A stretch of DNA of 32,000 nt from Candidatus Saccharimonadota bacterium. GTDB lineage: Bacteria > Patescibacteriota > Gracilibacteria > UBA4473. The translations under genes and the position numbers were made by a program. Numbering within the stretch: the stretch's first letter is position 1; each line of letters opens with the position of its first letter. Positions 3,001 through 23,090 of this stretch are shown here, piece by piece. The DNA lies in the NCBI GenBank assembly GCA_963677105.1, contig OY781871.1, positions 150,001-182,000 of the forward strand, in the 5' to 3' direction. The notes under the pieces were generated by a model. That model was given only the letters and a program-made list of their open reading frames with translations, did no database searches and had not been told where the DNA came from.

Positions 3001-5259
3001 AAAAGCAACAGCTGGCGCAGCCTTTGTTCCATTTTCCGTTTTATCAAATACTAAATAAAAGTTTCGCGTCGTATTATTTGTTGTTATTCCATTAAGAACA
3101 AAATCTATTCTTCCTTGCGCATTTGTGGCTGCATTATACGTTGGATACGGATGTACAAATCGTGCTTTTTTCAAACTTGTTATTGCTCCATTCCCATCGT
3201 GCTCTGCCACCCGAAAACATGTATCACACATTGTTCCTGTCGTGCCAAGATCTGCATACAATTGAGTGAAATCTACCGGAAAAGAAATTAAATAATCCTC
3301 ACGATCATATTCTGCTGCGTCCACTGTGAATGGCATTTTATACGCCCATTCATCCTCATCCAATATTGAATCTAATTCACGAAGTTCAACATCTGTACTT
3401 CCAACGTAACTATCTTGAATTGCCCCAATAAAAACATCTGCAGAAATCCCCGTACACTGATTATTAATACAATTATCATTTCCTGTACAGTCACTTACTG
3501 TCGCACAACAATCACCTGAATCACAACAATATCCATTTTGACAATGCCCACTCGTACAATCTGTATTTTCATCACAAGCAGAACCATTTGCTAAATCCGC
3601 TTCACAAACACTTCCATTACAATAATAATCATCCCAACAATGAGTATTTGATGAACAAGTTATATAACAACTCGATGTACTAGAAGCCTTATATGGTGAA
3701 CAACTCGTACAGGATGGATTATTAAATCCCACATCATCAGTACAAGTTGCAAGTAAATCAAATCCTCCATTGGTTTCTCCATCCGGAGCACAATAATCAT
3801 TTGCTGTATCTGGTGAATTTTCTGCTGTATCCCATATACCAGTATTACATTTTTTAAGCCAACTATTTCCAGAACAAAGAATTGAACCATCCACGTATTC
3901 TGTCGATCCTGGTCCATTCACACAAGAAGAAGCTGTTGCATGACAATACGCCCATATATCATCAAAATCTATATCACAATTTCCAGAAATACATTCTGTA
4001 TCTCCCGAACACACAAATCCTTCCTCTATATCACAATTTCCGCTTCCATCACATGAACACGCGTCCGTACCACTCGCCTCACATCCGGTAGAATCTTCAC
4101 ACGCTGTTCCCGGATCAGTATATCCATTTAACGGACTTTGACTTCCAGCTGGCTCATATCCAGAACAACTCAAGTTTCCTTCGTTCGTCGCTGACGTTCC
4201 TCCACATACCGTACAAGTTGCACAATTGATATCTATTCCATTACTCGATCCAACTATCCATTCTGGATCATAATCTACACTCGAACAATATCTTCCCACA
4301 TATTCATCACAATCATCTTCTCCTGTTGCTCTACAACGAGCTCCTCCTAAATCATGTCCTTTACAAATAAATAACTCCACTCCTGAAAGCTCCTCATCCG
4401 CTGTATCATATCCTGTTTGGTTACTGCTCCCCGAACATTCCTTGTCTGCTGGAGCACAATATTTCGTACCAGTAAGATCAAGGTCAAAAATTGTCGCTAC
4501 ACAATTATCAGAAATACAATTACTATCGACTGTACAACTCTGTCCATTCTGCGCTAAACAATCTCCTTCTGCATTACATCCTTCTCCAGCTGCACAGCCA
4601 TGTTGTGCTCCATCCACATAACAAACCTCTGCATAAGAATCATAATTTGTTACATAACTATTTGCAGGACAGCTTTTATTACAGTTTGAATCTTTACAAG
4701 AAACACTTGTCGCTCCTGCTCCAGAACAAGAAGTAGCAACATTGTTACACGAAGTTCCACCAGAACAAAGTCCGTTATATGCCGTACTCGTGCTATAAGT
4801 TACACAATTACCACTACTCCAACCATAAATCCAAGCGGAACAAATAGTCGTACCACATTCTCCATCTGGATCTGTATTTTGTGGGATAGTAGTACAATAT
4901 CCTTCGTTTCCACTTTGATCACAGGACTGACACGTATCATCACACTTAGAATCACAACACACATCATCTACACAAAAATTAACTCCACATTGTGTATCCG
5001 AAGTACAAGGATCTCCAAGTGCTAAAGATGCATATGCATTTTCTATTCCCCACATATTTTGAAACACAGACGATACTAATTTTTCATTTTCTAATGAAAT
5101 TTCTAAAGACAAAAATGGTACTATTGATCCCAAAATTTGCGATAACAATGCGCAAATATTTAAAATTGCAATATGACGAATAACACGAATATTAAATCTC
5201 AAAGACTTCCTTTCATGAGAAAGTTTTTGTATCGATCGTTTTATTTTTACAAATCTCAT
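1..5259 (-). CDS. Very large protein truncated at its 3' end by the window edge (>1753 aa): N-terminal hydrophobic anchor or signal, ~600-aa cysteine-rich region, then FG-GAP/VCBS-type (integrin-alpha-like) beta-propeller repeats
   Basis: It is absent from the ORF track because no stop lies inside the window. Manual minus-strand translation from ATG 5259..5257 gives MRFVKIKRSIQKLSHERKSLRFNIRVIRHIAILNICALLSQILGSIVPFL...GDPCTSDTQCGVNFCVDDVCCDSKCDDTCQSCDQSGNEGYC. Spot translations at ~2208 (TQADVDVGHGYQMTGGVADWDGDGIDEFVVGELNGR) and at 1-180 (GMDAADFDDDGNMDVIAQMYGSGTYIYYGNGDDTFDAP) are in the same frame, since 5259-2208 and 5259-3 are both multiples of 3. The two listed minus ORFs in this span (729..1001, 3660..3917) are in a different frame. 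The start lies 1 nt after the stop of the upstream gene. Confidence 0.85.
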   Translation of the reverse strand, partial: MRFVKIKRSIQKLSHERKSLRFNIRVIRHIAILNICALLSQILGSIVPFLSLEISLENEKLVSSVFQNMWGIENAYASLALGDPCTSDTQCGVNFCVDDVCCDSKCDDTCQSCDQSGNEGYCTTIPQNTDPDGECGTTICSAWIYGWSSGNCVTYSTSTAYNGLCSGGTSCNNVATSCSGAGATSVSCKDSNCNKSCPANSYVTNYDSYAEVCYVDGAQHGCAAGEGCNAEGDCLAQNGQSCTVDSNCISDNCVATIFDLDLTGTKYCAPADKECSGSSNQTGYDTADEELSGVELFICKGHDLGGARCRATGEDDCDEYVGRYCSSVDYDPEWIVGSSNGIDINCATCTVCGGTSATNEGNLSCSGYEPAGSQSPLNGYTDPGTACEDSTGCEASGTDACSCDGSGNCDIEEGFVCSGDTECISGNCDIDFDDIWAYCHATASSCVNGPGSTEYVDGSILCSGNSWLKKCNTGIWDTAENSPDTANDYCAPDGETNGGFDLLATCTDDVGFNNPSCTSCSPYKASSTSSCYITCSSNTHCWDDYYCNGSVCEADLANGSACDENTDCTSGHCQNGYCCDSGDCCATVSDCTGNDNCINNQCTGISADVFIGAIQDSYVGSTDVELRELDSILDEDEWAYKMPFTVDAAEYDREDYLISFPVDFTQLYADLGTTGTMCDTCFRVAEHDGNGAITSLKKARFVHPYPTYNAATNAQGRIDFVLNGITTNNTTRNFYLVFDKTENGTKAAPAVAFDNTQVFFYPETDLDGDGKSEIVIADHDYGVEIIKWNGVDAYESVFRQAWDMGSYPSLAIADVDGNGKPNLLVSYYANGYTWSFEYNSTSGEYENVNGGTTAAMDADVYTYNITVGDLDMDGINEVIAPGYAHNRSSIYGWNGSSYVKEAGLDVTDPSYWNSGADYTSFEEQVYYQMMGSVGDIDGDGVPEMLGQRYTSSGRRNLWQYGGNGTYEHQDYNNSGYNYWGSSMLDVDMDGYPELITDISAGIPLVYDFDGETGTWSSTQADVDVGHGYQMTGGVADWDGDGIDEFVVGELNGRAHVFQINPTTGAYEREWYGRDEGSYGVIAEFGDTDDDGVIEVIYPNSNSIDFYESTSGPTNGVPEATYTGSPTMGYYYSDSMLITGRPDPQAHGVGAPKIIWDKAENMMPESYIKNTGGSSFDLTYDIVVEKYVTSTWNLVSTIVSDASAALASTIELDTAAVWDTAGGWNTGTQTDGDYRVRVRMKDDNGTTLIHTTDGSPLEYSYEFMIDTVAPTISFNTPASNGTAVADPVLSEENTYEYVWKINTDELALCRYSPVTGDTWGDMVPMDDDYKTTHFHRLQIIDESSYNFYIKCRDVRDNESSEFNLNFTTEWDNKPTSGPASISSMIFNDTETVTLSGTCYDMDTTNATNDGMKECQFQGTQNGVTRNGTDWKACTGTSCSCSCTVTGAGVGSTGCPDFAGDGDWAYRVVCRDQANNYDSSSYSDSAVRATVSWGTATQESITVSAGDAVQDLTYKKTVTVNNPDGTVRGAGWSQNYTETLSSGVDSWSVYDGSTCSGDFIQKDIFVSIFDRDGKVWNSNIYGDSGLGVLEYQGDLFEGTDDSLDGKVADFNNDGYFDILSGGDSDIQIYSGSASGTFTSQYVTTSDYFPGDEIRGLAVADFDNDGDYDIFGIDENEGEHYFENGGSWSFTHTALSLAGNAGSYVSGMDAADFDDDGNMDVIAQMYGSGTYIYYGNGDDTFDAPVQKDTDTWLSYG

Positions 5260-5260
5260 A

Positions 5261-6691
5261 TTAATTTACTTCAATTACAAGTTCACTATTGGCTGTATCC
5301 CAATAGATTTTTCCACTTCCAATCTGAATTGCATCGGTACTAGAAGTGTCATCAAATTTTACGGCTCCACTAACATGTAGCTTTGCCGTCGGATCTGCTA
5401 CATTGACTCCTAAATCTCCATTTGCATCCAAAATCATTTGTTGCGTTCCAGCCGTATCAAATCGAATAATATCTTCGTCAGCACTTTCTTCTACTTGAAC
5501 TAACGTATCTCCATCCGCATCTGTCATAGAGTTACTGCTCAATATTCCTGTAGCAACAGTTGTTCCATTCCATTTCAATATACCTCCAACAGCATACAGT
5601 TTGTTTGTTGTCGTCCCTGGCTCTGTCATATCTGATAAATGAATATCTCCGTTTATATCCAAAAGACTTGCCGGCGTTGCCGTTCCAATTCCTACATTTC
5701 CATTTTTTAATACAGTCATAGCATTCGCCTCTGAACCCACACCTGTTCCAATTCCTATCTCGAAGACCGAATCTAAATTATACCAATTTGTCGCTGAATT
5801 ACTTTCTGTTGCAATCCCAATATTATATCTTCCAATCGCACGACTTGCAAGTGATGCAGCATGTGTTGAATAACCTCCAGCATGGGAATAACTCCCCTCT
5901 GCATATGTATCACCACCTTCTGCATGCGAAGAACCACCCTCGGCATGCGAAGAATAACCTTCCGCATGCGCATAATCATACGATGCATATGTAATACCAC
6001 CTTCAGCGTGCGATGCATACCCTTCTGCATGTGAACCTACTCCCTCTACATGTGAATTTACCCCTTCAGCAATTGTTTGATACCCTTCTGCATGTGAATT
6101 ATCAATTACATCCCCAAATAAAAATGATAATCCCGGAGCGTAATCAAAACCATCTCCAGTAATTCCTGCCGCAGCTATACTTGCTGCCGTCATCGTAATT
6201 GTTGTTGCTGTCTTAGACTCTACTACCAATCCTTGATACCAATCTTCATCGTACCCTTCATAAGCAACCATCGTCTCTCCAACACCTACTGTTGATGTGG
6301 ATTCACCCGAACTCACTGTAAATGTACGCGTTGAATGTACGTAGCTATCTAGCAATATTTGTTTTCGTGCCATCGCAAATTTTCCTCTCTCACTTGATCC
6401 ATTTTCATAAAATCGATGACTTGCACCACTTATTCCAACTATATCTAATTTTGCATTTGGATCATCTGTTCCTATTCCAACAAATCCGGCATCAGTGTAA
6501 TGAACTACTTTATTTGTCGTTACATTGTAGGTTGGTCCAGTAGCAAACACTATTCCTGAAATCAAAAGACTCACCATTGTCATTCCGAGCTTAATTCGGA
6601 ATTCAACAGTATAACTCTTTGCTCTGAGCTGCGGATTAATCCCGCAGTTACAAAGTGCTTTTTTCACGAACGCAAGAAATAGTTTTTTCAT
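5261..6691 (-). CDS. Secreted fibre-like protein with a YadA-head/Hep_Hag-like 'SHAEG' repeat array and tail-fibre-like C-terminal modules. The start is uncertain: 6736, 6691 or 6583.
   Basis: The track ORF is 5261..6736. I prefer ATG 6691 (MKKLFLAF...) because it overlaps the TGA of the upstream small ORF as ATGA, the coupling seen elsewhere in the locus. ATG 6583 (MTMVSLLISGIVFATG) is an alternative signal-peptide-like start downstream of a hairpin. Motifs present: GFVGIGTDDPNAKLDIVG, the SHAEGY/SHAEGG array, GNVGIGTATPASLLDINGD, and DTLVQVEESADEDIIRFDTAGTQQMILDANG. Confidence 0.85.
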   Translation of the reverse strand: MKKLFLAFVKKALCNCGINPQLRAKSYTVEFRIKLGMTMVSLLISGIVFATGPTYNVTTNKVVHYTDAGFVGIGTDDPNAKLDIVGISGASHRFYENGSSERGKFAMARKQILLDSYVHSTRTFTVSSGESTSTVGVGETMVAYEGYDEDWYQGLVVESKTATTITMTAASIAAAGITGDGFDYAPGLSFLFGDVIDNSHAEGYQTIAEGVNSHVEGVGSHAEGYASHAEGGITYASYDYAHAEGYSSHAEGGSSHAEGGDTYAEGSYSHAGGYSTHAASLASRAIGRYNIGIATESNSATNWYNLDSVFEIGIGTGVGSEANAMTVLKNGNVGIGTATPASLLDINGDIHLSDMTEPGTTTNKLYAVGGILKWNGTTVATGILSSNSMTDADGDTLVQVEESADEDIIRFDTAGTQQMILDANGDLGVNVADPTAKLHVSGAVKFDDTSSTDAIQIGSGKIYWDTANSELVIEVN

Positions 6692-7023
6692 TGTGTGTAT
6701 TTGTTTACGATTTGAGTTCGAACTGTACAAGTCCAAACTCCGAATATACGCGCATTCTCGCTACCAAAAGTAATGTAGTTCAGCCCTGTCGCCACTGCCC
6801 CCAATGCCGACAGGACAGAGCTCACTACTTCTGAGAATGAAAATGAAGTGTATGTCATAAGAAAGTTAGTATTAGATGAAACATCACATTTCTGATTCTT
6901 CTCGTCTTTTCCACCAAAAGTAATGTAGTTCAGCCCTGTCGCCACTGCCCCCAATGCCGACAGGACAGAGCTCACTACTTCTGGTGATGAAAACGATGTA
7001 TATGTCATAAGAAAATTAAACAT
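6688..7023 (-). CDS. Possible small protein (111 aa from ATG 7023; track ORF starts at 7038) with an internal 50-codon duplication. It may instead be a non-coding structured repeat region.
   Basis: For coding: the ORF is open across both repeat copies; ATG 7023..7021 overlaps the upstream TAA as TAATG; its TGA overlaps the next ATG as ATGA; and the first three differences between copies are synonymous third-position changes (TAT/TAC, ACA/ACT, TCG/TCA). Against coding: the perfectly conserved core uses G-ending codons (GTG CTG TCG GGG GCG) that are atypical for neighbouring genes, and it folds into a long hairpin. Confidence 0.35.
   Translation of the reverse strand: MFNFLMTYTSFSSPEVVSSVLSALGAVATGLNYITFGGKDEKNQKCDVSSNTNFLMTYTSFSFSEVVSSVLSALGAVATGLNYITFGSENARIFGVWTCTVRTQIVNKYTQ
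6763..6868. repeat. Copy 1 of a tandem ~106-nt repeat (period 150 nt) containing a GC-rich 34-nt imperfect palindrome (6783..6816)
   Basis: 6763..6833 is identical over 71 nt to 6913..6983. Similarity continues with scattered mismatches to 6868/7018. Core palindrome: gccctgtcgccactgcccccaatgccgacaggac. Confidence 0.95.
6913..7018. repeat. Copy 2 of the tandem repeat (hairpin core 6933..6966), immediately downstream of the 850-aa gene stop
   Basis: Direct comparison with 6763..6868. The offset is exactly 150 nt. Confidence 0.95.
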
Positions 7024-9575
7024 TAAAAAGAGAACCAATTAGTACCATCTGAGTACAACCTCAAAACTCCATAATCAGCAGTTATATCGATTGAACTAGC
7101 ACCATCTATTGTTTGAGATGCCAGCGTATCAACAGTAATATTATTGGTTCCCGCACCTCCAGACTCGTCTTTAACAATGACGATCCGACCTTCTACTGTC
7201 TCTACTGTTGATAATGTAATTGTGCGCGCGACAGAAGTGTCCGTAATACCATAAATCGTTTCATTACCAATACTTCCTCCCACAGAACTTGCTGTACGAT
7301 TTACTAAAAATCTATCATTTAATGTTAACTTTGCATCTATTTCTACTTCTCCTTCAAAATGATTCAGTACCTTCTGTCCTACTTGATAAATACCATAGTT
7401 GTTATCTGCGTTGTCCCCCGTATCTATATATACTCCATAATTATTTGTTACCTTTTCCCCACTTGAACCAATATTTAATGGACTCACTCTATATCCAATA
7501 TGATTTTCCAAGGTATTCTTTGCTGTATCTTCCCAAATACGGTCATGTGCATCGTAATTGATGATGCTTGTTACTTTTGCTGCTGCTTCTGAACCAATTG
7601 CATCAGCTCTATTCGCAATATATTCACTTCCAGTACCAGATAAAATTTCTATTGATATGACATTTTTTATTCCTACACCATATGTAGAATTATCATCAAA
7701 ACGCGTAGAAGACGAAATTGTTGCATCCTCATCAAGATCTATAACACCACTTCTTTTTTCTTGAACGGATAATTTATAACTTGGTGCCGATGTTCCAATT
7801 CCCACTTTTCCACTAGCATCAATAATCATGCGTTCTGATCCCGCGGTATCAAATCTGATTTTGTCTTCGTCTGCTGATTCTTCTACTTGAATTTTTGTAT
7901 CACTGTCTGTATCTGTCACCGCATCTGATGAAATCCCCGCAAGAGCTCCTGTAACAAATGCAGTTGTTGCAATTGAAGTATCATTATCTCCTGTCGTTGG
8001 TGTTGGTGCTGTTGGATCTCCTGTAAATGTTGGACTTGCTATATCTGCTTTATCTGTAGTCAATGTATCGATATTCGTTGCATTGGTAATAATATTCGTC
8101 GTATTTGTCGCAACAGCTCCAGTTTCCAATGCTGATAATTCTGTATCAGTCGCAAGTGTTACTCCCCAAATTGTTTCTACTTCTCCTTGAGTATCCCATT
8201 CACTATCTCTCGTAATCGTACTAGCAATTCTTGCATCTGCCACAGTTCCCGTTGAAATATTTGTTCCAGAAATTCCTGATCCTACGGCTGAACCACTCAA
8301 ACTTCCATCTGCCAAATCACCTAAATATGTATTTAACTCTGTTAATGTATTATTTATCCACGCTGTTCCACTCCATTTCAATATTTCTCCTGCAGAATTA
8401 CTAGTAATTGTTGTATCTGACAAACTATCTAAACTTGAAACAAGCCCTGTCAAACCAGATCCATCTCCCACAAATTCTGTCGCTGTTACTGTTCCATAAA
8501 CATCTAATGAACTTGTTTGAGTTGTTGTTCCTATTTCTACTGTTCCTGCATCTCCATCTATATAAAATGTATTGGGAACCGTAATACCCACAGCCTGTAT
8601 TTCTCCATCTACTTCTAATTCTGTTGATGGTGCTAGTAACCCAATTCCAACTCTATGATTTATTGTATCTACATGTAATGTCATTGTGTCTACAGTAAGT
8701 CCTCCAGAATTTACCACTCCTGCCGTAGTTACATTTGCACTATTGTCTACCACGAAAGAATTTCCACTATCTTTTTCTATATTTATAAGATCTCCAGTTC
8801 CGTACTGTGTTCCCCAAAGTAATGGATCGGTTGTAGAATATCCAGACTCCGTTCCTGTTTCGAAATATGATTTATTTGGTAAACAAATTGCCGGACATGT
8901 TGTCGATTGTGTTCCAGGTAAACCTCCGCCAGTTGTACAAGAAGCACTTTTTTGCCATTCACAACCATTGTCTCCATCTGAACCAGAATCTCCTTCTCCA
9001 TTACCATCACAGTCCAAGTGAGTACTCTTACATCCAGCAGTACAATCTGCTTCCCAAATCACATTCGGTCGTCCCCACGCAGTACTACTATCTCCATTAA
9101 TATAAATCTCACAACCATCTCCATCGGTTGTGCTTCCATCACATTCCTGATAGTTCGCAATACATGTCGCAGAACAAGAGAACGTTGTCGCATTCGCATC
9201 ACAAATTGTTTGACGATGTACATTATAACAAGATGAATCACGCTGACATTTCCAACCGGTTGTTCCCATTGTCGAACAAGTCGCTCCAGAATTTGCCACA
9301 CAATCAAACACAAATCCTCCTCCTAAACCTGAACTTGGATTATATGTTGATGTTGTTCCATCAGAACTAGGAATCGCTGCTTCAATATTTGCTTCTGTGT
9401 CACAATACAATGTGCTTGATGAATAACTACATGCATATGTATTCGCTCCACAATCTTGTGATTGATATGCTGTAGGACATAAAGCAGCATCTTTCACCCA
9501 TACTGCAGCAGATGCTGTCATTGGAAGAACCAATGCCAGTACGGTCATCGAAAGCCTGTATATTTTATTCATCAT
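7023..9575 (-). CDS. Secreted fibre protein (850 aa): signal peptide, Cys-rich N-terminal domain, tail-fibre-like shaft, distinct C-terminal beta-rich domain
   Basis: Track ORF. MMNKIYRLSMTVLALVLPMTASA is a signal peptide. Cys-rich motifs include ANYQECDGSTTDGDGCE and STHLDCDGNGEG..GCE. Shaft motifs include ASPTFTGDPTAPTPTTGDNDTSIATTAFV and DTKIQVEESADEDKIRFDTAGSERMIIDASGKVGIGTSAP. It ends ...ITVDTLASQTIDGASSIDITADYGVLRLYSDGTNWFSF. There is a 4-nt ATGA overlap with the upstream gene. Confidence 0.93.
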   Translation of the reverse strand: MMNKIYRLSMTVLALVLPMTASAAVWVKDAALCPTAYQSQDCGANTYACSYSSSTLYCDTEANIEAAIPSSDGTTSTYNPSSGLGGGFVFDCVANSGATCSTMGTTGWKCQRDSSCYNVHRQTICDANATTFSCSATCIANYQECDGSTTDGDGCEIYINGDSSTAWGRPNVIWEADCTAGCKSTHLDCDGNGEGDSGSDGDNGCEWQKSASCTTGGGLPGTQSTTCPAICLPNKSYFETGTESGYSTTDPLLWGTQYGTGDLINIEKDSGNSFVVDNSANVTTAGVVNSGGLTVDTMTLHVDTINHRVGIGLLAPSTELEVDGEIQAVGITVPNTFYIDGDAGTVEIGTTTQTSSLDVYGTVTATEFVGDGSGLTGLVSSLDSLSDTTITSNSAGEILKWSGTAWINNTLTELNTYLGDLADGSLSGSAVGSGISGTNISTGTVADARIASTITRDSEWDTQGEVETIWGVTLATDTELSALETGAVATNTTNIITNATNIDTLTTDKADIASPTFTGDPTAPTPTTGDNDTSIATTAFVTGALAGISSDAVTDTDSDTKIQVEESADEDKIRFDTAGSERMIIDASGKVGIGTSAPSYKLSVQEKRSGVIDLDEDATISSSTRFDDNSTYGVGIKNVISIEILSGTGSEYIANRADAIGSEAAAKVTSIINYDAHDRIWEDTAKNTLENHIGYRVSPLNIGSSGEKVTNNYGVYIDTGDNADNNYGIYQVGQKVLNHFEGEVEIDAKLTLNDRFLVNRTASSVGGSIGNETIYGITDTSVARTITLSTVETVEGRIVIVKDESGGAGTNNITVDTLASQTIDGASSIDITADYGVLRLYSDGTNWFSF

Positions 9576-12500
9576 TTACAACAAGCAAGATTAAAGGACA
9601 CTCCACAGTTGGACACTTTTCCAGATCCTCCCGTAGTTGTATCTGTTCGCCAGAAACTTCCAAGATATGTACCTCCCACTCCATGTGTCCAACCATTACA
9701 ATCATTTACTGGTAAATCTGCTGGTGAGTATTTTGCTCCTCCAGTACTCATCCACACATCTCCACTCCATCCAGTCAACGTACTCAAATCAGCTACCGTT
9801 TCAATTGTGTACAAAATTTCTGCCTGAGAACATAAGTGACTTCCTGTGTGATCTGCCGCACACAATGCGTTTCCTGATTTATATCCATTCACTCCTAAAT
9901 TTCCTGTGTAAGTTGCAGTTGTTTTTCCAACGAAAACAGAAGCACTCTGTGCCAAAACGGTCGCATACAAATCTGAAACATCTACTCCATCAACAGTTCC
10001 TGAAACAGCAATATTTCCGACTACATCAAGTGCTTCTGTTGGTGTTGTTGTTCCAATTCCTACATTATAATTACCCTCTTCTGATAATAAAATATTCTTA
10101 CCACTCAGACTGCTATCAATTCTTAATACATTTGTGGCATCTGCCTCATCATAAATAATAAATGCATCATCGTATTCATCTGCCATGTTAAAAAATGCAG
10201 GACGATCCCCTGAAACATTTAAACTATAATTTCCTGGTGTTGTCGTACCAATTCCCACATTTCCATCTCCAGAAATTCTCATTGCTTCTCCCATTCCATT
10301 TGTTGAGTCTGAAGTAGAAAAGCTTAATCCCATCTCTCCTTCACCCGTTCCAGCATTTTCAGCAATAAGTTTTATTGCTCCAACATTTTGGTTTCCTGCC
10401 TGCACAATTGTTTTAAAATACAATGCTGACAATTCTGTTCCTGCTGTAAAACTACCGTAAGAATAACCATTAAGCGTTGCATTTACAGAACTGCTTGAAT
10501 TTGAAAGAAGGAGATTCCCAACCACATCTAATGCTTCATTTGGATCCGTTGTACCGATTCCTACATTGCTTCCCTTTGCCGTTAAAATTTCCGTCCCATC
10601 AACCCAAAGTCCCAACGAATCCATTGCATTTCCAGCATAATCTCCCACAAAAATATGATTATCTCCGGTACGATCTCCTTTTTTCAAAACAGGGATACCA
10701 CTTAATGCAATTTCTCCATATACATCCAACTCTTTTATTGGACTTGTCGTTCCAATTCCCACATTTCCACTTGTATCAACCTGCAATCCTGTGTAAGAAA
10801 TCTTGTAAGATTGAGCAGGAGAAACTGTCTGTGAAACAGAAACTGTAAGACTTGTTGATGAATTAAATGCTGTAATTGTTCCGGCACTTCTTCCATCAGC
10901 AAATACAAACTGTGAACCTACCATTGCAGAAGTAAACGTTGTTCCAACTCCTGTAATCGTTGTCGCTAACTGAGAAGCTGTTCCTGTGTCGTATTGCGTT
11001 GGAGTAACAGAAAAAATTCCAGCAGGAGCTCTCGTTCCTATTCCTACATTATAATCTCCTGCTTCTGAAAAAAGAATTGTTTTGGCATCATTATTAATTC
11101 GAAAGGCGTTTTCCCCTTCAGGATCACTATAAATAACAAATGCATCGCTCGTTTCAGATGCTATTGTAAAATACGCCGAACGATCTCCATCAACTTTTAA
11201 CCTATAATCTCCTGGCGTCGTCGTTCCAATTCCTACATTTCCACCTTCAAAAACAAAATTAGCATTCTCCCACCTTAAAAGACCAATGTCAGGATTTTCT
11301 GCATTATTAAATCTTATTCCAAGATCTCCCGCCAGATTATCTGTTTTCAACTCTAAAAAAGCATCATGATCCTCATTATTATAAATTAAAGCCGTTGTTT
11401 CTGAACTACCACTTTCAACTTCCAAGGTTGCCACAGGATCTGTTGTTCCAATTCCCACTTTCCCATTAGTCAATGTCATTACTTCTGCAGAAGTGTCGTC
11501 ATACAATGCTAATCTCGCCCCGGCACCATCAACATCTCCTAACTTTAAGGCGTCATTTACTGAATCATATTGTACAAATGGTGCTCCATTATGCGCTATG
11601 AAATCTCCTACTACATCTAACGCTGCTGCTGGACTCGATGTTCCTATTCCCACGTTTCCTCCATCTTCAATTGTTAAATCAATGCTATTATTTGTTCCTA
11701 ATGCCACAGCTCCACTTCCTAGATTTACTAAATTCATGGAACTTGCTCCTCCATAACCAGTTGCTGTAGAACCAGCCATAAAAAATCCTCCTCGTAAGGC
11801 ACTTGTATCATTTCCAAATTCTAAAACGGCATATGAACTCGGAGTCATTTCTCGAATATTCACTCGTCCATCAAGAACGCTTAATTTTTGACCAGGTGTA
11901 CTCGTCCCAATTCCTACATTTCCATTCTCATCAATAATCATTCGCTCCGTTCCCGCTGTATCAAATCGAATCTTATCTTCATCTGCAGATTCTTCTACTT
12001 GAATCTTCGTATCTTCATCTGCATCTATCACTGAATCTGATGATATACTTCCAAGTGCTCCCGTAACAAAAGCAGTTGTTGCAATCGATGTGTCATTATC
12101 TAATGCTGTTGGCGTTGGTGCTGTTGGGTCTCCCGTAAGTGCTGCATTCGTAAACATCGTTGCCTTGCTTTCATTTGTCACATTTCCCAATCCTAATGAT
12201 GTTCTTACGGTTGCCCCTGTTTCATACGCAAATGTTCCTGCCGTTCCTGTTGACACAATAAATTGACCATCTGTTGCGTCCACCACGTCTAATGTGTTCA
12301 AGTCCTCAAGTATTCCTGTTGTAGTTAATCCTCCAGTTGTAGTTGCTAATCCTCCAGCTGCTGTAACTGTTAATGTATCATCTGTTAACGTTATTCCATC
12401 TCCAACCGCTAAATTTGTTTCATCTGAAATATCTATTTCTGATCCAAGTAAAGAAACACTTGAATCAACCGAAACAAGTCCACTATCTGCTCGTAAAACT

Positions 12501-14899
12501 CCTGTTAATCCAGTTGGCAATGTTACTGTTCCCGTAAAGGTTGGTGAAGCCAATGGTGCTTTTGATAAAAGTTCTGTATTTATTTTTAAAGCACTCCAAA
12601 GATTTGTTGGTAACGTTCCACTGTCATTCAAACTTAATCCACTATCTGTAAGATTCCCATTCGTATCTAATCCAGCCAAGTTTCCATTTGTTGCTCCGGA
12701 TACTTTATCTGCCTTATCTCCTAATACAGAAGTGTTTGTTGAAATATTTGATACATTCGTAGCCACTGTTCCAGATAATGACGAAACATCTACTCCGTCC
12801 ACTAATCCTGCTGTAACAATTCCTCCAACCGTGAGAACATTTGTTGTTGTTGCACCACGATCTGTCACCAAATCTAGCGTATCTACTTCCGTAACGGTAC
12901 TATTTGCAATTTCTGTTTTAATTTTATCTACACTCCAGAAAACATCTGTTCCAGAAGTTGCTGTATCATCTAATCCAACCATCGAAGCCGTAATTCCACT
13001 TACCGTTCCGGTGAATGTTGGACTTTCAAGAAATGCAAATGTTTTTCGCGCAGCTCCCGTAGTAATCGTTCCATAAAAGGCATCATTTAAGAATTCTACA
13101 CTTCCTACTTCTGGCGTCGTCAAAAGATCTCCTGATGTAAATTTCAATGGAGCTGTGTTTGCTGCTGTTGTTCCTGCTTTTAAATGTAAAGCCGCTGTTG
13201 GTGAAGTGGTTCCAATTCCTACATTTCCTGTATGTGATGAACCAGCTGTGTCAATAAAGAAAGGATATGTTGCTACTGAACCATCCCAAGATTTTATTAC
13301 AAAGTCATAGGATGGTGTATAAAATCCATATATACCCGATTCTAAATATCCAAACTTAGAACCGCCTGGCCATTGAATATAATTTTGATTATTTGTTCCC
13401 AGTCTTATGTTTCCAACAACCTCCAAAGCCTCATTTGGCGTTGTCGTTCCAATTCCTACCTTTCCTGCATTATCTATTACCATCTTAGGAGTCACTGCTC
13501 CCCAACCAGTACCAAACGCTAATCCCGTCTCACTCGACCCAAATGTATATCCTCGAACGCTCGCAGCTTCTGTTCCGTTTGTATGAGAAAATACTATTCG
13601 TCCTCCACTTCCCACTGTTCCAGCAGAATAAGTAGATGTTAATTCTAGCGTATCTTGACCATCAGCAGACACTGATAATCCATCTGAAATATGTAATCTT
13701 GTAGATGGGGTTGCTGTTCCAATTCCAACATTTCCGGTCGCATCCACCTGCAATCCCGTATATGAAATTTTATAATCCTGAGAAGAAACAGTTTGCGATT
13801 CTGAAACAGTAAGTTCTGTCGCAGAAGTAAATGCTGTAACAGTTCCTGCACTCGTTCCATCATCAAAGACAAATTGTGATCCAACCATGTCTGACGTAAA
13901 TGTCGTTCCAACTCCAGTAATTGTTGTTCCTGACTGAGAAGCGGTTCCCGTATTGTATTGTTCTGGCGTAACCGACAAAATTCCTGTTGGTGTTGTCGTT
14001 CCAATTCCTACATTCGCATCATTATCTACTACGAAAGAATTTCCACTGTCTTTCTTAAAATTTATTAAATCTCCTGTTCCCAATTGTTTTCCCCAAAGCA
14101 ACGGATTCGATGTCGTATATTCTGCTTCTGTTCCTGTTTCAAAATTTTCTGGCTCAAATGGTACACATGTACATGTTCCTCCAGCTGTTCGATTTCCATT
14201 TGTTCCAGCTCCCGTACAACTTCCTGGCAATCCACCTGAAACCATTGTACAAAGATCACTTGTGTGCCCATTACATCCTTCTACTTCTGGAGTTTCTCCT
14301 GTAACAGTAAAGTAACCACTCGCGCAGGTTCGATCACTACAAGATGTGCTTCCATATAATGTATGTGCTGGAGAGGGTGCTGCCGTTACATTTTTACGAA
14401 TTTCACAGGTTGAATCTGGAGATGCACTACAATTTCGGTATCCGCTGATACAACCTGAATCTGACCCTGCAGCCACTGTTTTACAAGTCGCAGTACCTGC
14501 AACACTTCCCGTACATTGTGTTTCTACATGAGCACTAACACAACTCGTCTTTTGCTGACACTTCCAGTTTGCTGGTGATGGTGTACAAGCACTTGTTCCG
14601 AGACAGTGATAAATATATCCACCATTGGTAGAAAATGATGAATTATGATTTCCTCCCGTAGCAGCTGTTGTTGGCAATGTACCTGTAATCGCTGCCGGCA
14701 ATGAACATGCCGTATAACTACATTGCACTTGTTGTCCGCCCTCTGTTGGACATGGAGCTGATACATCTTCTCGTCCTTGCACACAATTTGCTGGATCTGT
14801 TGCCCAATCATCTCCTGCATAATCAGCTGCCCATACGATTCCCTTCCCCCCCAAGAGGAGAACAAAAAAGATGAGACTGAACAATTTCTTATTCATCAT
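9572..14899 (-). CDS. Giant secreted fibre protein (1775 aa): signal peptide, Cys-rich N-terminal domain, long shaft of NVGIGT repeats, conserved C-terminal Cys-containing '...ACCK' domain
   Basis: Track ORF. MMNKKLFSLIFFVLLLGGKGIVWA is a signal peptide. There are more than 15 copies of (G)NVGIGT(T/S)xP. Other motifs: ESPTFTGTVSGI, DPTAPTPTALDNDTSIATTAFV, DTKIQVEESADEDKIRFDTAG. An internal ~104-aa duplication is present. The C-terminus reads TATYTGNLGVNGYKSGNALCAADHTGSHLCSQAEI...NDCNGWTHG...SFNLACCK. Confidence 0.95.
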   Translation of the reverse strand: MMNKKLFSLIFFVLLLGGKGIVWAADYAGDDWATDPANCVQGREDVSAPCPTEGGQQVQCSYTACSLPAAITGTLPTTAATGGNHNSSFSTNGGYIYHCLGTSACTPSPANWKCQQKTSCVSAHVETQCTGSVAGTATCKTVAAGSDSGCISGYRNCSASPDSTCEIRKNVTAAPSPAHTLYGSTSCSDRTCASGYFTVTGETPEVEGCNGHTSDLCTMVSGGLPGSCTGAGTNGNRTAGGTCTCVPFEPENFETGTEAEYTTSNPLLWGKQLGTGDLINFKKDSGNSFVVDNDANVGIGTTTPTGILSVTPEQYNTGTASQSGTTITGVGTTFTSDMVGSQFVFDDGTSAGTVTAFTSATELTVSESQTVSSQDYKISYTGLQVDATGNVGIGTATPSTRLHISDGLSVSADGQDTLELTSTYSAGTVGSGGRIVFSHTNGTEAASVRGYTFGSSETGLAFGTGWGAVTPKMVIDNAGKVGIGTTTPNEALEVVGNIRLGTNNQNYIQWPGGSKFGYLESGIYGFYTPSYDFVIKSWDGSVATYPFFIDTAGSSHTGNVGIGTTSPTAALHLKAGTTAANTAPLKFTSGDLLTTPEVGSVEFLNDAFYGTITTGAARKTFAFLESPTFTGTVSGITASMVGLDDTATSGTDVFWSVDKIKTEIANSTVTEVDTLDLVTDRGATTTNVLTVGGIVTAGLVDGVDVSSLSGTVATNVSNISTNTSVLGDKADKVSGATNGNLAGLDTNGNLTDSGLSLNDSGTLPTNLWSALKINTELLSKAPLASPTFTGTVTLPTGLTGVLRADSGLVSVDSSVSLLGSEIDISDETNLAVGDGITLTDDTLTVTAAGGLATTTGGLTTTGILEDLNTLDVVDATDGQFIVSTGTAGTFAYETGATVRTSLGLGNVTNESKATMFTNAALTGDPTAPTPTALDNDTSIATTAFVTGALGSISSDSVIDADEDTKIQVEESADEDKIRFDTAGTERMIIDENGNVGIGTSTPGQKLSVLDGRVNIREMTPSSYAVLEFGNDTSALRGGFFMAGSTATGYGGASSMNLVNLGSGAVALGTNNSIDLTIEDGGNVGIGTSSPAAALDVVGDFIAHNGAPFVQYDSVNDALKLGDVDGAGARLALYDDTSAEVMTLTNGKVGIGTTDPVATLEVESGSSETTALIYNNEDHDAFLELKTDNLAGDLGIRFNNAENPDIGLLRWENANFVFEGGNVGIGTTTPGDYRLKVDGDRSAYFTIASETSDAFVIYSDPEGENAFRINNDAKTILFSEAGDYNVGIGTRAPAGIFSVTPTQYDTGTASQLATTITGVGTTFTSAMVGSQFVFADGRSAGTITAFNSSTSLTVSVSQTVSPAQSYKISYTGLQVDTSGNVGIGTTSPIKELDVYGEIALSGIPVLKKGDRTGDNHIFVGDYAGNAMDSLGLWVDGTEILTAKGSNVGIGTTDPNEALDVVGNLLLSNSSSSVNATLNGYSYGSFTAGTELSALYFKTIVQAGNQNVGAIKLIAENAGTGEGEMGLSFSTSDSTNGMGEAMRISGDGNVGIGTTTPGNYSLNVSGDRPAFFNMADEYDDAFIIYDEADATNVLRIDSSLSGKNILLSEEGNYNVGIGTTTPTEALDVVGNIAVSGTVDGVDVSDLYATVLAQSASVFVGKTTATYTGNLGVNGYKSGNALCAADHTGSHLCSQAEILYTIETVADLSTLTGWSGDVWMSTGGAKYSPADLPVNDCNGWTHGVGGTYLGSFWRTDTTTGGSGKVSNCGVSFNLACCK
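10739..11053 (-). repeat. Intragenic duplicated module (copy B, ~105 aa) in the 1775-aa gene
   Basis: YNVGIGTRAPAGIFSVTPTQYDTGTASQLATTITGVGTTFTSAMVGSQFVFADGRSAGTITAFNSSTSLTVSVSQTVSPAQSYKISYTGLQVDTSGNVGIGTTSP aligns along its length with the copy at 13706..14017. Confidence 0.9.
13706..14017 (-). repeat. Intragenic duplicated module (copy A, ~104 aa) in the 1775-aa gene
   Basis: ANVGIGTTTPTGILSVTPEQYNTGTASQSGTTITGVGTTFTSDMVGSQFVFDDGTSAGTVTAFTSATELTVSESQTVSSQDYKISYTGLQVDATGNVGIGTATP. Confidence 0.9.
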
Positions 14900-14916
14900 T
14901 TACAACAGGCTATTTT
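14866..14916. repeat. 51-nt segment spanning the gene junction, identical to 19545..19595
   Basis: The run aaaagatgagactgaacaatttcttattcatcatttacaacaggctatttt occurs at both junctions. Flanks stay similar with few mismatches for roughly 40 nt further on each side. Confidence 0.95.
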
Positions 14917-17900
14917 TAAAGACGAACTACAAAGAGCTGTTTTCCCAACTCCCCCCATAGTGTCAAATTTCCAGAAATTTCCGTAACTTCCCGTTCCTCC
15001 TGAAAAAGTCCAACCATCACAGTCATTCGTATTATCTGTACTTGGAAACTTCGCCGCTCCGGTGCTAATCCAAACTTCTTGTCCGTCTAATGAAGTAACA
15101 TCTTCACTACTTATTGTGTAAAAAATCTCATCACTTGAACACATGTGACTTCCTGTATATTCATCATCACAAATAGCATGAGCTGCTTTATATCCAGTAA
15201 GTCCTCCTGTAAATGAAAGTGAGCCATTATAATTATCAGGAGTTCTTCCTACATATTTCGCTTGCTCATTTGCTACAACACTCGCCGCCAAGTCAGAAAC
15301 ATCTACTCCATCAACAGTTCCTGAAACCGCAATATCTCCACCAATTGTTGCATCTCCTGAAAGGAACAAGTCTTGCCATTCAGATGAACCTGATCCCAAA
15401 TCATATGCATTGGTTGCATTTGGAAGGAGATTATTTGCATTAACATTTGCGTCTACATTTAAAATTCCCGATAGAGTTCCTCCTGTTAACTGTAAATAAT
15501 CAGAATCATGATTGTGCGTACCACTCACTTTTGAGGCTAAATCTGTTTCAATATCTTCTAATCGCAAATCTACTGATCCAAATATTCCACTGGCAGAAGA
15601 ATTTCGTGCTTCCAAAACTTCTGTTTCAACGGTTGTCGATCCTTGTCCCGCCCAAGTCGCTCCATCATAACCGACTAAAGTAACACCAGAAATAACTGGA
15701 GTAGAAGTACCAGATCCACTAACCATAGTAGCCTTGGCTCTTAAATCGGTACCAATATTGGTGAATTCCCACATAGATCCAGGAGTAACTGGACCTTCCC
15801 AATTAGAACCCCCATCTGCTGTCAAATACCAAGTAATAGAATCACCAGCACCTGCTCCTCCACTATAATCAAATTTAGCCATAGTAAAGTCGGCTACAGA
15901 AGTAGCTAAAGTCTCTGTTTCAAAAGTATTAGAAGCCTCAAAAATTAACTGACTCTTCGACATGTGAGTGTCAGAATAATTAGAAAAATACCAATAGCCA
16001 TTATAATAATGCGGCTGCCAATGATAAGAAGATGTTTCTTCTGCGTTACCAGTGACTTTTCCTGTGTCAGATATAATAAAATACTCCTGAGCAGTTAAAT
16101 CATAAACTAAATATCCATAGGGCATACCACTCCAAGCACCAAGCCAAATTTGATTATTGATTCGAGCTATATCCCAACGAGTAACGGCTACTGGAATCTC
16201 ATCAATAATCTTATGAAATTCTAGTGAACCAGTAGTTTTAGATAATTTTTGCCAATTATTATAACCAGACAACCAAACAATGTCGGAATCCAAAGGATCT
16301 TGAAAAGAAGAATAAACATCATCATGATAAGTATTAATTCCTGGAGTAGTATCTGTGTCATAATGTTGAATTAACGTATCAGTGTCCATATCCCAAATAT
16401 AGAAACCATTAGAAGTAGACAGATGTAATTCATTACCATACGTCTCAGAAGCATAATATGTACCAGACACTAAACCATCTACAGAACCATAATCAGTAAA
16501 AGTGTCGGCTAACACATCATAAACCTGCATATAACCAGTAGTTGGGAAGGTGTAAATCTTCCCATCATAATATTCCATAGCACTATCAAATGATGTTCCA
16601 TGATTCAATGAATTTAAATCAGAATTTGAAGTAGTGAATTGAGTAACGGTATTAGAATCAATATCAATCTTAATCATTCCATTGTCATAACTATTATTCG
16701 TAGCATAAAGATCATTCCGTACCGGATCATAAGCCAAATGCTGCCAATAATTATTTGGTAGAGATGGGGTAGAAGCAGTCCACCATTCATTTGCTATGGT
16801 TTCAGTATCTAAATTAATAATTTTAATTCCATATCCATAGGTACCTAAATACATCTTATTTCCATAAATCAAAGTACCACCCATAGATCGAGAAGATCCA
16901 TAACCATAACTCAAACTTATTGTTTCCCAAGCACTATGATCATTTTGAATCGTACCTAATTGATTATTATAATAAGCGGTAGTATTAGCTGTTTTAACTT
17001 TGGAAGAATCCATGAAATTCTCACCAACTACGGTCGCATTACTCAAAATAGAAGAATAATTCGCAATAACACCATTAAATCGATCATTTAATGAAGCATA
17101 CGTACTTCGACCAGCGACCACCTCGTCCACACGATCTCCCGAAATCATTCCCGTGTTATCAATTACTGTCGTACTTCCCACTTTAAATCCTCCTGTTGCA
17201 CTTACTGTTCCTGTTGCAGAAATATCTCCTGTTGCACTTACGTCTCCAGTCAAACCAATTCCACTTGTACTTGTTATGCTAATTGGATTCGTTCCATCTC
17301 CAATGGTAAGCATTCCATCTGATTCAATGGAAGCTGCTGAAGAAAACTTTAAATTTCCTGCAATTTCCAACTTTTCACTCGGTGTCGTTGTCCCGATTCC
17401 TACATTTCCCGTTGCTGCATCAATTCTCATTGCCTCTTGCACACTTCCGTCATAATACTGAAAATAATAATCATTTCCTCCAAAATAAACGTGATCATGA
17501 TAATATTTTGCTCCGCTATCAAAACTAAGGAAGTTACTACTATCTAATCGAATATTTCCTTCCTCTATATCTAATTTTTCAGCTGGAGTCGCTGCTCCAA
17601 TTCCCACATTTCCATCTTCATCAATTATCATTCTCTCTGTTCCAGCCGTATCAAAACGTATTTTATCTTCATCGGTTGACTCTTCTACTTGAATTTTTGT
17701 ATCACTATCTGCATCTGTCATTGAATCTGATGATATACTTCCAAGCGCTCCTGTAACGAAAGCTGTTGTCGCAATCGAAGCATCATTATCTCCTGCTGTT
17801 GGTGTTTGTGATTGAGGATCTCCGGTGAATGTTGGACTTTCAAGAAATGCAAATGTTTTTCTCGTTGTATCTGGTGTAAAGAAGAGATCTGTCCCATCAA

Positions 17901-19578: not shown

Positions 19579-19595
19579 TTACAACAGGCTATTTT
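19545..19595. repeat. 51-nt junction segment identical to 14866..14916
   Basis: Direct comparison. It covers the signal-peptide codons of the downstream gene, the ATGATGA start/stop overlap, and the ...ACCK codons of the upstream gene. Confidence 0.95.
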
Positions 19596-22500: not shown

Positions 22501-23090
22501 ACAGCACCTGAGTCTGTATCCGCTGTCAACGCACCAAGCAAAAGCGATGCTCCAAGCTCAATCGCTCCGTCTGCCGTCGCCCGAAACATATTCACCACTC
22601 CTGTCCCCGCACTATCTCGAGCCGAAATCCAAGAGTTATTATCCAATCGAATCTCTCCCGCTACATCCAATTTTGTTGTAGGAGTTATCGTTCCAATTCC
22701 CAATTTCCCGTCTACTATTGCCGCCCCTTGAAAACACTCTCCGGCCTCCACGGTGGTGTTGTCGTTGAAATCAACATGTGATGTTCCTGTCGGACATGTC
22801 CCCGTATCCGCAGTATAAGTCCCCAAACCAACAAGATCGTCTGTTAATCCTGCTGTTTTTTCATCTACAAAAATCTTTCTTGCTACATCAAGAATTGCAT
22901 TAAAGTCTGTTATGCTCAACGAATCACCGACACTTTTTGTCGGAATTTCAGAAGCATATGGTCCTGACAAATCTGCCGCACTTACTGGCGAACAAACAAG
23001 TAAAAGTCCCCCGATCCCAATTATTAGTTTTTTAAACTTTTTTTTGGGACCCACAGACAAAGTTGGGGGCGTGATTAACGTTTTTTTCAT
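19575..23090 (-). CDS. First gene of the locus. Secreted fibre protein (1171 aa) with no Cys-rich N-terminal domain, a CBM/galactose-binding-like segment, and the C-terminal '...ACCK' domain
   Basis: Track ORF. The N-terminus MKKTLITPPTLSVGPKKKFKKLIIGIGGLLLVCSPVSA is signal-like. AAAGGA lies 7 nt upstream of the ATG. Motifs: NSPTFTGTVSGI, IPTAPTAAPATNTTQIATTAFV, NGTFAADSDWTKGAGWTIPGG...FSIDNVSVKK, RVGIGTTSPTATLHLKAGTTAANTAPLKFTAG. It ends GYKAANEICNAEGGAFADSHMCSVDEI...NDCNGWLHD...SFKIACCK. Confidence 0.95.
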   Translation of the reverse strand: MKKTLITPPTLSVGPKKKFKKLIIGIGGLLLVCSPVSAADLSGPYASEIPTKSVGDSLSITDFNAILDVARKIFVDEKTAGLTDDLVGLGTYTADTGTCPTGTSHVDFNDNTTVEAGECFQGAAIVDGKLGIGTITPTTKLDVAGEIRLDNNSWISARDSAGTGVVNMFRATADGAIELGASLLLGALTADTDSGAVSIFNMPVSSSAGVGTEMSASVQLDSENIFKIYAESDGSGGIQNKSVQVSGSVHATGFCDEDGLNCKTITELSNTGTDDQTASEVTATDEFDNSDSTNVQDILDDLDTVLSLKAPSNSPTFTGTVSGITSAMVGLGNVTNESKATMFTNAALTGIPTAPTAAPATNTTQIATTAFVTEAVTAGADTDWTEGSGNVYRLSGNVGIGTTAPESKLQVAGSATLGVGNDTVTNGTFAADSDWTKGAGWTIPGGTTANFSGDAYSALRQDLGLDAGDYVVIEFDASNITGATANFDVGAATYGAISDGHNVFYRTVGTGGYEGFISFYMDGTGTFSIDNVSVKKVGEVNLQDTLRVVDGNVGIGTTTPAAKLQIGTGTPNQSVAVERQLYIAEDAEFDGKVSFDGSTHFNGATYITGNYLETPLGYMESTSANSLALDSPWNSLVLTTNVNRHRNADHGNKTNPTFFIQSATDPDVDNTEWGSLSFEGTGAGDGYFKIASGVGDIALQPEGNVGIGTTSPVNPLHVSSTSSQDILTIQRNSTADNAEARINFDVTGNPSGITTAYISAIRKPSGSGIGSLAFGTVSEGMRITDEGNVGIGTSTPETFLHIDAGEQLAYPSPVFKATANNGGADRDFTIEFTGSSGGNWQMGADSSSRYILKGYSVDLSPTNASGGTRVAGSGDFSVYTDDLFVDQSEGRVGIGTTSPTATLHLKAGTTAANTAPLKFTAGTNLTTPEAGVMEYDGTDLFFTPDTTRKTLAFIESPDFTGTPTAPTAGSSTNTTQIATTAFVQNVISGLSASSIIEGDTSVVVTDSGSDGTITLTTEGSTAMIIDSDGNVDVTDGTFTVDGVNVMPMYVGLTAGTYNGAFTYTGGFTGYKAANEICNAEGGAFADSHMCSVDEIFFTINNLSSYTWTNGTQAWVSTGAAKYPSANNTNDCNGWLHDGGSSYYGNFWEFSAMGGVGKTALCSSSFKIACCK

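Follow-up and report, generated by a model that had tools for sequence, protein, structure and literature searches.

The DNA analysed here is a 32,000-nt stretch (the window) covering positions 150,001 to 182,000 of contig OY781871.1, from assembly GCA_963677105.1. It contains an operon of four minus-strand genes for fibre-like proteins, which are translationally coupled, with start and stop codons overlapping by 4 bp. The gene for a 1171-aa protein comes first (19575-23090) and its stop overlaps the start of the gene for a 1560-aa protein (14896-19578), which overlaps in the same way with the downstream gene for a secreted 1775-aa protein (open reading frame (ORF) at 9572-14899). The fourth gene of the operon encodes a protein of 850 aa (ORF at 7023-9575). 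The first three proteins end in a cysteine-rich domain of about 120 aa, referred to here as the tip domain. The reading that we favour, although by little more than an even chance, is that this domain forms an extracellular, disulfide-locked adhesin head on tail-fibre-like fibres at the surface of a Candidate Phyla Radiation (CPR) bacterium. It rests on tool results for the domain itself, its conservation, its strict C-terminal position, the secretion signals, the fibre-like shafts, the taxonomic spread and the predicted topology.

Fibre proteins

Based on the translations, all four fibre proteins start with a Sec-type signal peptide. That of the 1775-aa protein (MMNKKLFSLIFFVLLLGGKGIVWA; 14828-14899, minus strand) has a near-identical copy at 19507-19578 (DNA repeat D14, 87% identity). 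In the 1775-aa protein, the signal peptide is followed by a Cys-rich N-terminal region (approximately aa 25-260; 14120-14827, minus strand), a long shaft in which GNVGIGTTxP motifs recur, and the tip domain; the whole protein has no Pfam match. The 1560-aa protein has the same N-terminal signal peptide and Cys-rich region, continues through a shaft and a middle region rich in aromatic residues, and ends in the tip domain. The 1171-aa protein has a differing N-terminus, with a signal peptide of 38 aa and without the Cys-rich region, and continues with a shaft and the tip domain. The Cys-rich region, about 240 aa long and characterised by the patterns C..GY..C and CE(I/V), has two further minus-strand copies at 18800-19506 and 8790-9506, in the 1560- and 850-aa fibres, and is shared with two distant relatives found in the family search described below (P0040 and P0020). 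It has no match in Pfam, and it may be the proximal, anchoring end of the fibre or a second binding end.

The 850-aa protein shares the signal peptide, the Cys-rich N-terminus and shaft modules with its siblings, and has another C-terminal domain in place of the ACCK tip. This domain (residues 628-848) matches phrog_20556, annotated as 'baseplate protein', and the protein has other PHROG tail-fibre matches as well. The gene looks like a natural head swap, and its product is a natural control, i.e. a paralogue without the tip.

The GNVGIGTTxP-type repeat is present in 17 copies over the gene cluster (repeat families D1 and D2). The composition of the shafts points to a build-up via duplication and shuffling of modules. 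DNA repeats of 76-79% identity link 10817-11050 to 13781-14014, and 7770-8048 to 11882-12160 and 17572-17850. A 'TP.QY.TGTASQ...ISYTGLQVD' unit is found twice within the 1775-aa gene and a 'DTKIQVEES.DEDKIRFDTAG' module is common to four genes.

An earlier, sequence-only reading of this DNA had likened the layout of the three tip-bearing proteins to that of phage receptor-binding fibres. As far as the shafts are concerned, this likeness holds: the 1775-aa fibre matches the PHROG tail-fibre families phrog_9942 (E 3.8e-23, the best value obtained) and phrog_18345 (1.3e-14), and the 1171-aa fibre matches phrog_2631 (1.9e-16), phrog_454 and phrog_7032. No capsid, terminase, tail or tail-tube genes were found in the 32-kb window. 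Since the proteins carry Sec signal peptides and the window is part of a cellular contig of 962,416 bp, they are most likely cellular, exported surface fibres resembling phage tail fibres rather than virion parts. A prophage or tailocin origin of the window was considered and rejected, because virion genes are lacking there and the fibres bear signal peptides.

Tip domain and its family

The sequence-only reading had also noted a common pattern at three consecutive C-termini. Its coordinates were correct, and the minus-strand translations begin with VDGV.V and end with ACCK. BLASTP of the segments as noted gave 47% identity between the 1775- and 1560-aa proteins (E 2e-40) and 40% between the 1775- and 1171-aa proteins (E 2e-29). 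The three segments thus share a C-terminal module, but its extent had to be revised: the initial 'TVDGVDVSDL' stretch belongs to the shaft and has a near-copy inside the 1775-aa protein (repeat D18), while the globular domain proper begins at (F/Y)VG.T (positions 9934, 15255 and 19946). With these limits, the tip domain comprises 120 aa and six Cys in the 1775-aa fibre (9575-9934), where it ends in ...ACCK, 119 aa in the 1560-aa fibre (14899-15255) and 123 aa in the 1171-aa fibre (19578-19946), all on the minus strand. In a MAFFT alignment of the three tips, 44 of the 120 columns are invariant, including C25, C35, C79, C110, C118 and C119. With these six invariant Cys, and with shafts that match tail-fibre families, the tip is confirmed as a conserved Cys-rich C-terminal module on fibre proteins. 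Exactly three copies are present in the window according to tblastn and a six-frame hmmsearch, and the 850-aa protein gave no match.

Two subtypes can be distinguished. The head of the 1775-aa fibre (subtype 1) has the loop 'SPADLPVNDCNGW', as in most of the family, including the majority-type SPADLPVNDC. The heads of the 1560- and 1171-aa fibres (subtype 2) have a shortened loop of the form P-S-x-(D/N)-N-T-NDC, which reads 'PSTDNTNDCDGW' in the 1560-aa fibre. The two subtype 2 heads are 64% identical to each other, whereas the 1775-aa tip is 48-49% identical to either. The 1775-aa tip is 85% identical to that of P0021, a fibre fragment from another metagenome, and 66% identical to that of P0001, and its own operon neighbours rank only around 50th among its 148 relatives. 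Since this head is closer to P0021 than to the adjacent heads, the relationships fit a modular exchange, and suggest that a head can pass as a unit from one shaft or genome to another.

An exhaustive HMMER search of 1.84 billion representatives, with clustering at 50% identity, retrieved 1,292 clusters with the tip domain at E ≤ 1e-3, 777 at E ≤ 1e-10 and 160 at E ≤ 1e-30. An earlier word-indexed search had given only 12 relatives, which reflects the sensitivity limit of that search and not rarity. The figures for the family alignment given here and below refer to 149 sequences, namely the best 146 relatives of the 1,292 clusters and the three tips of the window. Exactly six Cys are found in 125 of the 149; C25, C35 and C110 are invariant and C79, C118 and C119 are conserved in at least 97%. 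Most members are 150-450 aa long and giant fibre versions are a minority. An N-terminal hydrophobic segment was found in 118 of the 136 members that start with Met, and the usual layout is a signal or transmembrane segment, a short stalk, often rich in N-glycosylation sequons, and the head. The longest members contain LamG or cadherin-like modules and no enzymes. In the most divergent match, P0013, a tip-like domain follows without a linker on an N-terminus of the ParA/MinD P-loop type (residues 1-50); this is probably a frameshift or an assembly chimera rather than a real fusion.

The tip domain ends at most five residues from the C-terminus in 148 of the 149 members, with the conserved terminal motif ACC[KSR]. 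Such a strict position would also suit a tag for sorting or secretion, through which the cargo is exported or covalently attached, like the C-terminal domain (CTD) of the type IX secretion system (T9SS) or PEP-CTERM and PGF-CTERM. This explanation appears very improbable to us. No match to the known sorting domains (T9SS CTD, PEP-CTERM, PGF-CTERM, LPXTG) was obtained in NCBIfam or Pfam, and the known tags do not resemble a lectin-like domain of 120 aa in which three disulfides are likely. Moreover, the terminus reads ...LACCK without a hydrophobic tail, the cargoes are stalks and adhesion modules instead of diverse enzymes, and the domain is also present in a virus tail module.

With regard to distribution, a pattern-limited scan of species-representative genomes identified the domain in six DPANN archaea (a member of the Nanohalarchaeota, two of the Nanoarchaeia, one each of the Woesearchaeota and Pacearchaeota, and one uncultured archaeon) and in one Patescibacteria metagenome-assembled genome (MAG); some MAG copies are located on contigs of 156 kb and 509 kb. 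Three viral contigs from IMG/VR also bear the tip domain. A gene pair, in which a small tip protein (164-371 aa) is directly followed by a fibre-like protein of approximately 1,113-1,127 aa, recurs in the DPANN and viral loci (L001, 7355-11229; L007, 5593-9653; L010, 5245-9733). On the viral contig L010, genes for an SU10-like major capsid protein and a head-tail adaptor precede those for the tip-domain protein of 371 aa and, after it, a protein of 1123 aa, the second of the pair, which PHROG identified as a tail fibre. At L007, an 810-aa neighbour matches phrog_12710 (E 1e-177), and the locus may be a provirus for this reason. The most notable features of the family are its size and its spread across CPR bacteria, DPANN archaea and their viruses.

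Neither hmmscan with Pfam, applied to the tips (E ≤ 10) and to the full-length proteins, nor NCBIfam, nor a sequence-profile search of the PDB (E ≤ 10) gave a match for the tip domain. Even at E ≤ 10, Pfam hmmscan of the three tips and of divergent members returned neither DUF1554 (PF07588), endostatin (PF06482) nor Lectin_C (PF00059). We therefore regard it as a new family without annotation, which represents a variant among C-type-lectin-like domains.

Predicted fold

AlphaFold2 models were obtained with 15 sequences (pLDDT 81) and with 149 sequences (pLDDT 95.5, pTM 0.88). Based on DSSP, the better model consists of a β-strand at 3-9, helix α1 at 18-28, a short strand at 33-36, helix α2 at 37-46, β2 at 58-61, a 29-residue loop with a short helix from D78 to W82, β3 at 91-97, β4 at 104-109 and β5 at 114-119. 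The prediction therefore reproduces the C-type-lectin-like topology of β1-α1-α2-β2-long loop-β3-β4-β5. The Cys are predicted to lie as in C-type-lectin-like domains, i.e. in α1, before β3, after β4 and in β5, with one additional Cys before α2 and another in β5.

In Foldseek searches against the PDB, all of the top 50 matches of both models were C-type-lectin-like domains, including snaclecs, carbohydrate-recognition domain (CRD) 4 of the mannose receptor, Mincle, BDCA-2, Endo180 and gp42 of Epstein-Barr virus. The best E-value was 3.6e-3 for the first model (probability 0.98-0.99) and 1.7e-2 for the second (probability 0.93), with template modelling (TM) scores of 0.31-0.47. Against BFVD, the best matches were C-type-lectin-like proteins of poxviruses and herpesviruses and DUF1566 proteins of phages (best E 3.5e-2, TM ≤ 0.48). 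The fold is most likely C-type-lectin-like and plausibly of the endostatin/DUF1554 type; that the fibres carry a lectin-like tip is very likely.

The canonical C-type-lectin-like domains (snaclecs, Mincle, mannose-receptor CRD-4 and the viral proteins) were the best and only structural matches. They have the same order of elements as the tip, and also a Cys in α1 that pairs with one in β5 and a Cys pair around β3/β4, as is predicted for the tip. The identity between them and the tip is only 9-19%. In canonical domains, the interval between the second and third Cys (C2-C3) is much shorter: the tip has a spacing of 31 residues against approximately 14, and it would have an extra disulfide. A rod or fibre with a C-terminal C-type-lectin-like head is also the layout of prokaryotic and phage adhesins such as Mtd of a Bordetella phage, TvpA of Treponema, DUF1566/Lcl proteins and intimin/invasin, and further links to this group are the phage DUF1566 proteins among the BFVD matches and the viral family member in a tail module. 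The proteins described here differ from these adhesins in that they have no diversity-generating retroelement (DGR) in the window and no sequence similarity to them, are rich in likely disulfides, have a conserved loop and are Sec-exported cellular proteins.

Relationship to DUF1554 and endostatin

According to the sequence-only reading, the start of the tip resembles that of the Leptospira domain DUF1554 and of endostatin, the C-terminal domain of collagens XV and XVIII. Both motifs are correct. The DUF1554 sequences read IFVT...YNGNLGG..GAD..C and end in C.....L.CVEQ, and the endostatin motif matches PDB 1BNL; this endostatin sequence also matches PF07588 weakly (E 9e-4, in the G..GAD..C region). 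Endostatin (PF06482; PDB 1BNL, 1KOE and 1DY2) forms a family of its own in the C-type lectin-like superfamily of SCOP and has an N-terminal Zn-binding site of His and Asp residues and a basic, heparin-binding patch.

Membership of the tip in PF07588 as defined in Pfam is not supported: it stays below the gathering score of 27.5 bits, whereas a DUF1554-like control scored 174 bits with the same tool. The DUF1554-like control sequence retrieved 182 real DUF1554 proteins, and the 149-sequence family profile was compared by hhalign with 76 real DUF1554 domain sequences. Local alignment gave a probability of 42-58% (P 2.6e-4 to 1e-4) and global alignment 55-70% (P 1.8e-5 to 5e-6), against 0.3% with the reversed DUF1554 profile. 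None of 150 column-shuffled DUF1554 profiles reached the observed scores of 29.3-31.6 (mean 12.5, standard deviation 2.7, maximum 28.5). In the confident local alignment (V76-C119), C79, C110 and C118 stand opposite the three C-terminal Cys of DUF1554, and in greedy and global alignments FV.xT..Y.GNL..GY.A.N.IC is paired with IFVT...YNGNLGG..GAD..C. Reciprocal hmmsearch with the filters off yielded many weak two-segment matches of 8-19 bits in both directions.

The motifs are also collinear, as G-Y-x-A-(G/A)-(N/D)-x-I-C is followed by C-N-G-(W/F)-T with Cys at +31/+39(+40). Counted from CxxW(T), the later Cys lie at +31/+39(/+40) in 72 of the 149 members and at +30/+38 in another 30, compared to about +32/+40 in DUF1554 and +30/+38 in endostatin. 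DUF1554 shares with the tip the N-terminal FV(T/N)...Y.GNLGG..G(A)(D/N)..C and the C-terminal C..W(T)...G...C.....L.C(C/V). It occurs in secreted proteins and lipoproteins of Leptospira and other bacteria, so that, as for the tip family, its members are secreted and their function is not known. DUF1554 differs from the tip in several respects. Its middle part is some 40 aa longer and contains a separate Cys pair (RRACTTANC). It has neither the PKYxPAxxPVND loop nor the terminal CC pair, nor the H-x-C Cys that precedes helix 2; it ends with CVEQ, and it is not known from fibre shafts. The likeness to DUF1554 thus has real but modest support in the profile alignments, together with the collinear motifs and the Cys spacing, and is not accompanied by a Pfam match.

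Like the tip as predicted, endostatin is globular with a C-type-lectin-like fold and closes the C-terminal end of a long fibre, which in its case is trimeric. Endostatin and the tip have in common the G..GAD..C start and CxxW(R/T) with the two later Cys, and its known order of elements, β-loop-α1-β-α2, is that of the tip model. It is metazoan, is longer (approximately 180 aa) and has two disulfides where three are likely in the tip; besides, the tip has no N-terminal His cluster corresponding to the Zn site and is not Arg-rich like the heparin-binding patch. With hhalign, a three-sequence endostatin profile gave a probability of only 0.1% with the tip family, which is a weak negative in view of the thin profile; as a control, DUF1554 gave 77% (P 2e-5) with the same profile. 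Endostatin was also absent among the top 50 Foldseek PDB matches listed. Taken together, the alignments and motifs make remote homology of the tip to the DUF1554/endostatin branch probable.

Sequence variation

Conservation across the family is highest at positions 61-83, which read W61..G65.PKY.PA..PVNDCNG(W/F)T, and in β3 and β5. Variation across the family is greatest in the α2-β2 loop (47-57, where none of 11 positions is identical among the three paralogues), at 84-90 and in β4. Insertions within the family cluster after position 13.

The targets of DGRs in CPR and DPANN organisms are typically C-terminal C-type-lectin-fold domains (PMC7443923). The tip might be a variable region of this type, subject to hypermutation by a DGR, which is common in both groups. 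Such a role is hardly credible here. Within the 32-kb window, the repeat search found no template repeat that is about 90% identical to a C-terminal variable region with A-specific mismatches, and the repeats that touch the tips are ordinary paralogous matches with 72-87% identity (D14 and D17). No reverse transcriptase was found among the window ORFs scanned, and the tips have no sequence match to PF03781 or DUF1566. A Cys-rich domain with a highly conserved loop is, in addition, unlike the FGE-type variable regions of DGRs. As the window contains no template-repeat/variable-region pair, the idea was rejected for this locus.

Genomic context

The ORFs of the window are intact under the standard code. 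In a collection of 15 billion proteins, each of the window proteins is present once, always on the same 962,416-bp contig. For a neighbouring M23 peptidase with SLH domains, the best-matching named homologues come from Candidatus Gracilibacteria and Candidatus Peregrinibacteria (45-49% identity along the entire protein), and the window is part of the genome, of about 1 Mb, of a Gracilibacteria/Peregrinibacteria-like CPR bacterium. Other neighbours encode a PLD-like protein and a nuclease of the SNase family. Upstream of the fibre operon, and separated from it by a tRNA-Arg(TCG) gene (23881-23957), lies the gene for a secreted 776-aa protein (24020-26350, minus strand) with two AIR9-type Ig domains (PF23197, E 2e-17), which are encoded by a 278-nt tandem duplication with 83% identity (repeat 25628-26187).

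On the other side, a fibre-like ORF of 491 aa with GNVGIGT motifs (5261-6736, minus strand) contains a 21-nt tandem repeat at 5860-6098, encoding (S/Y)HAEG(G/Y) heptads and hence a His-rich stretch. Between this gene and the 850-aa gene, two 106-nt direct repeats with 93% identity are found 150 nt apart (6763-7018), inside a doubtful ORF of 116 aa (6688-7038). The fibre genes are directly followed downstream by a giant minus-strand ORF of at least 1753 aa (1-5259), which runs off the window. The first third of its product is rich in Cys, and at least six repeats of the FG-GAP/VCBS type are present (PF13517, E 2e-33), making it a probable further surface or adhesion protein.

Proposed role

In the proposed mechanism, the fibre proteins would be exported by the Sec pathway, after which the head would oxidise to form three disulfides. 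By analogy with endostatin (C1-C4, C2-C3), the predicted pairs are C25-C118/119 and C79-C110, with C35 bound to whichever Cys of the CC pair is left. Oligomerisation of the shaft would be as in a tail fibre, and the distally placed head would bind a surface molecule of a partner cell, probably a glycan or glycoprotein on the host or prey on which such episymbionts depend. The operon would supply at least two head subtypes on different shafts. Disulfide pairing, trimerisation, distal orientation and ligand binding are inferred. There are parallels for such a role: in Vampirococcus, a related CPR predator, giant surface proteins that make up a fibrous coat have been proposed for host attachment and recognition (PMC8080830), and lectin-like surface proteins have been proposed for host attachment in DPANN archaea, namely nanohaloarchaea (PMC7443923). 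DPANN archaea carry this type of head as well, in most cases on short stalks anchored in the membrane, and tailed viruses encode it within their tail-gene module; it therefore putatively behaves as a portable receptor-binding module.

Several observations weigh against an adhesin head. None of the structural matches is significant, as the best E-value of 3.6e-3 does not pass 1e-3 and all TM scores are below 0.5. The fold call of the sequence-only reading, C-type-lectin-like, is thus partly supported, by the predicted topology and by the fact that only such folds were returned, but not by a significant match. The EPN/QPD and WND motifs for Ca2+ and sugar, found in true C-type lectins, are absent from the family alignment, because of which carbohydrate binding is only a guess. 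Furthermore, it is conservation and not variation that is greatest in PKYxPAxxPVNDCNGWT, the counterpart of the long loop through which C-type-lectin-like domains usually bind ligand. A common ligand class or a structural role therefore fits better than the diversified ligand specificity that had been suggested from the three paralogues. Finally, the distal end of the fibre might just as well be formed by the Cys-rich domain at the N-terminus.

The conserved loop raises the alternative that the tip is not a ligand site but a structural cap or a nucleus for folding and oligomerisation, comparable to the C-terminal region through which collagens XV/XVIII trimerise or to the intramolecular chaperones at the C-terminus of phage fibres. 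The high conservation of core and long loop across more than 1,000 clusters suggests a constant role, the position is strictly C-terminal, and phage fibres and collagens usually fold from a C-terminal nucleus. We nevertheless regard this as unlikely, since most members are short (150-400 aa) with little or no repetitive shaft to nucleate, and no Peptidase_S74 or chaperone match was found in Pfam. In collagen XVIII, moreover, the trimerisation region is separate from endostatin, and two divergent tip subtypes in one operon are more easily explained by differences in binding.

In another alternative, the tip would be a proximal anchor that binds the cell's own wall, S-layer or glycans, and the N-terminal Cys-rich domain would be distal and face the host. 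A conserved loop implies a conserved ligand, possibly a polymer of the own surface; the N-terminal Cys-rich region is itself a candidate binding module, and once the signal peptide is cleaved nothing else in the fibres is anchor-like. This arrangement seems to us quite improbable all the same. The family is found in bacteria, which have peptidoglycan, in DPANN archaea, which do not, and in viruses, which leaves no common envelope polymer to be bound. Most small members have an N-terminal hydrophobic segment, making the C-terminal domain the free end, and by analogy with tail fibres the C-terminus is distal.

An adhesin head at the free end can be taken one step further. It is conceivable, albeit doubtful, that the family is a previously unannotated prokaryotic and viral branch of the endostatin/DUF1554 lineage of C-type-lectin-like domains, and that it provides interchangeable heads for host recognition. 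These would pass among CPR bacteria, DPANN archaea and their viruses, with the subtype setting the host range. If so, both great radiations of ultra-small episymbionts would have a molecular attachment toolkit in common. If the link to DUF1554 and endostatin is true, it would also widen the known prokaryotic reach of the fold of the endostatin domain of collagens XV/XVIII.

Little is understood about the way in which hosts are recognised and held by CPR bacteria and DPANN archaea, and in the literature surveyed type IV pili are the only experimentally tested factor for CPR bacteria. The tip is a compact domain that is very widespread, with 1,292 or more clusters at 50% identity, although Pfam, NCBIfam and the PDB do not contain it. 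In both radiations it probably forms the free end of secreted fibres and stalks, it is also encoded in a virus tail module, and it is a case of one surface module common to bacteria and archaea. It can serve as an annotation marker for putative adhesin genes and is a concrete, expressible candidate for host-binding experiments. While the architecture is familiar, the tip still gives a concrete handle on host attachment by episymbionts.

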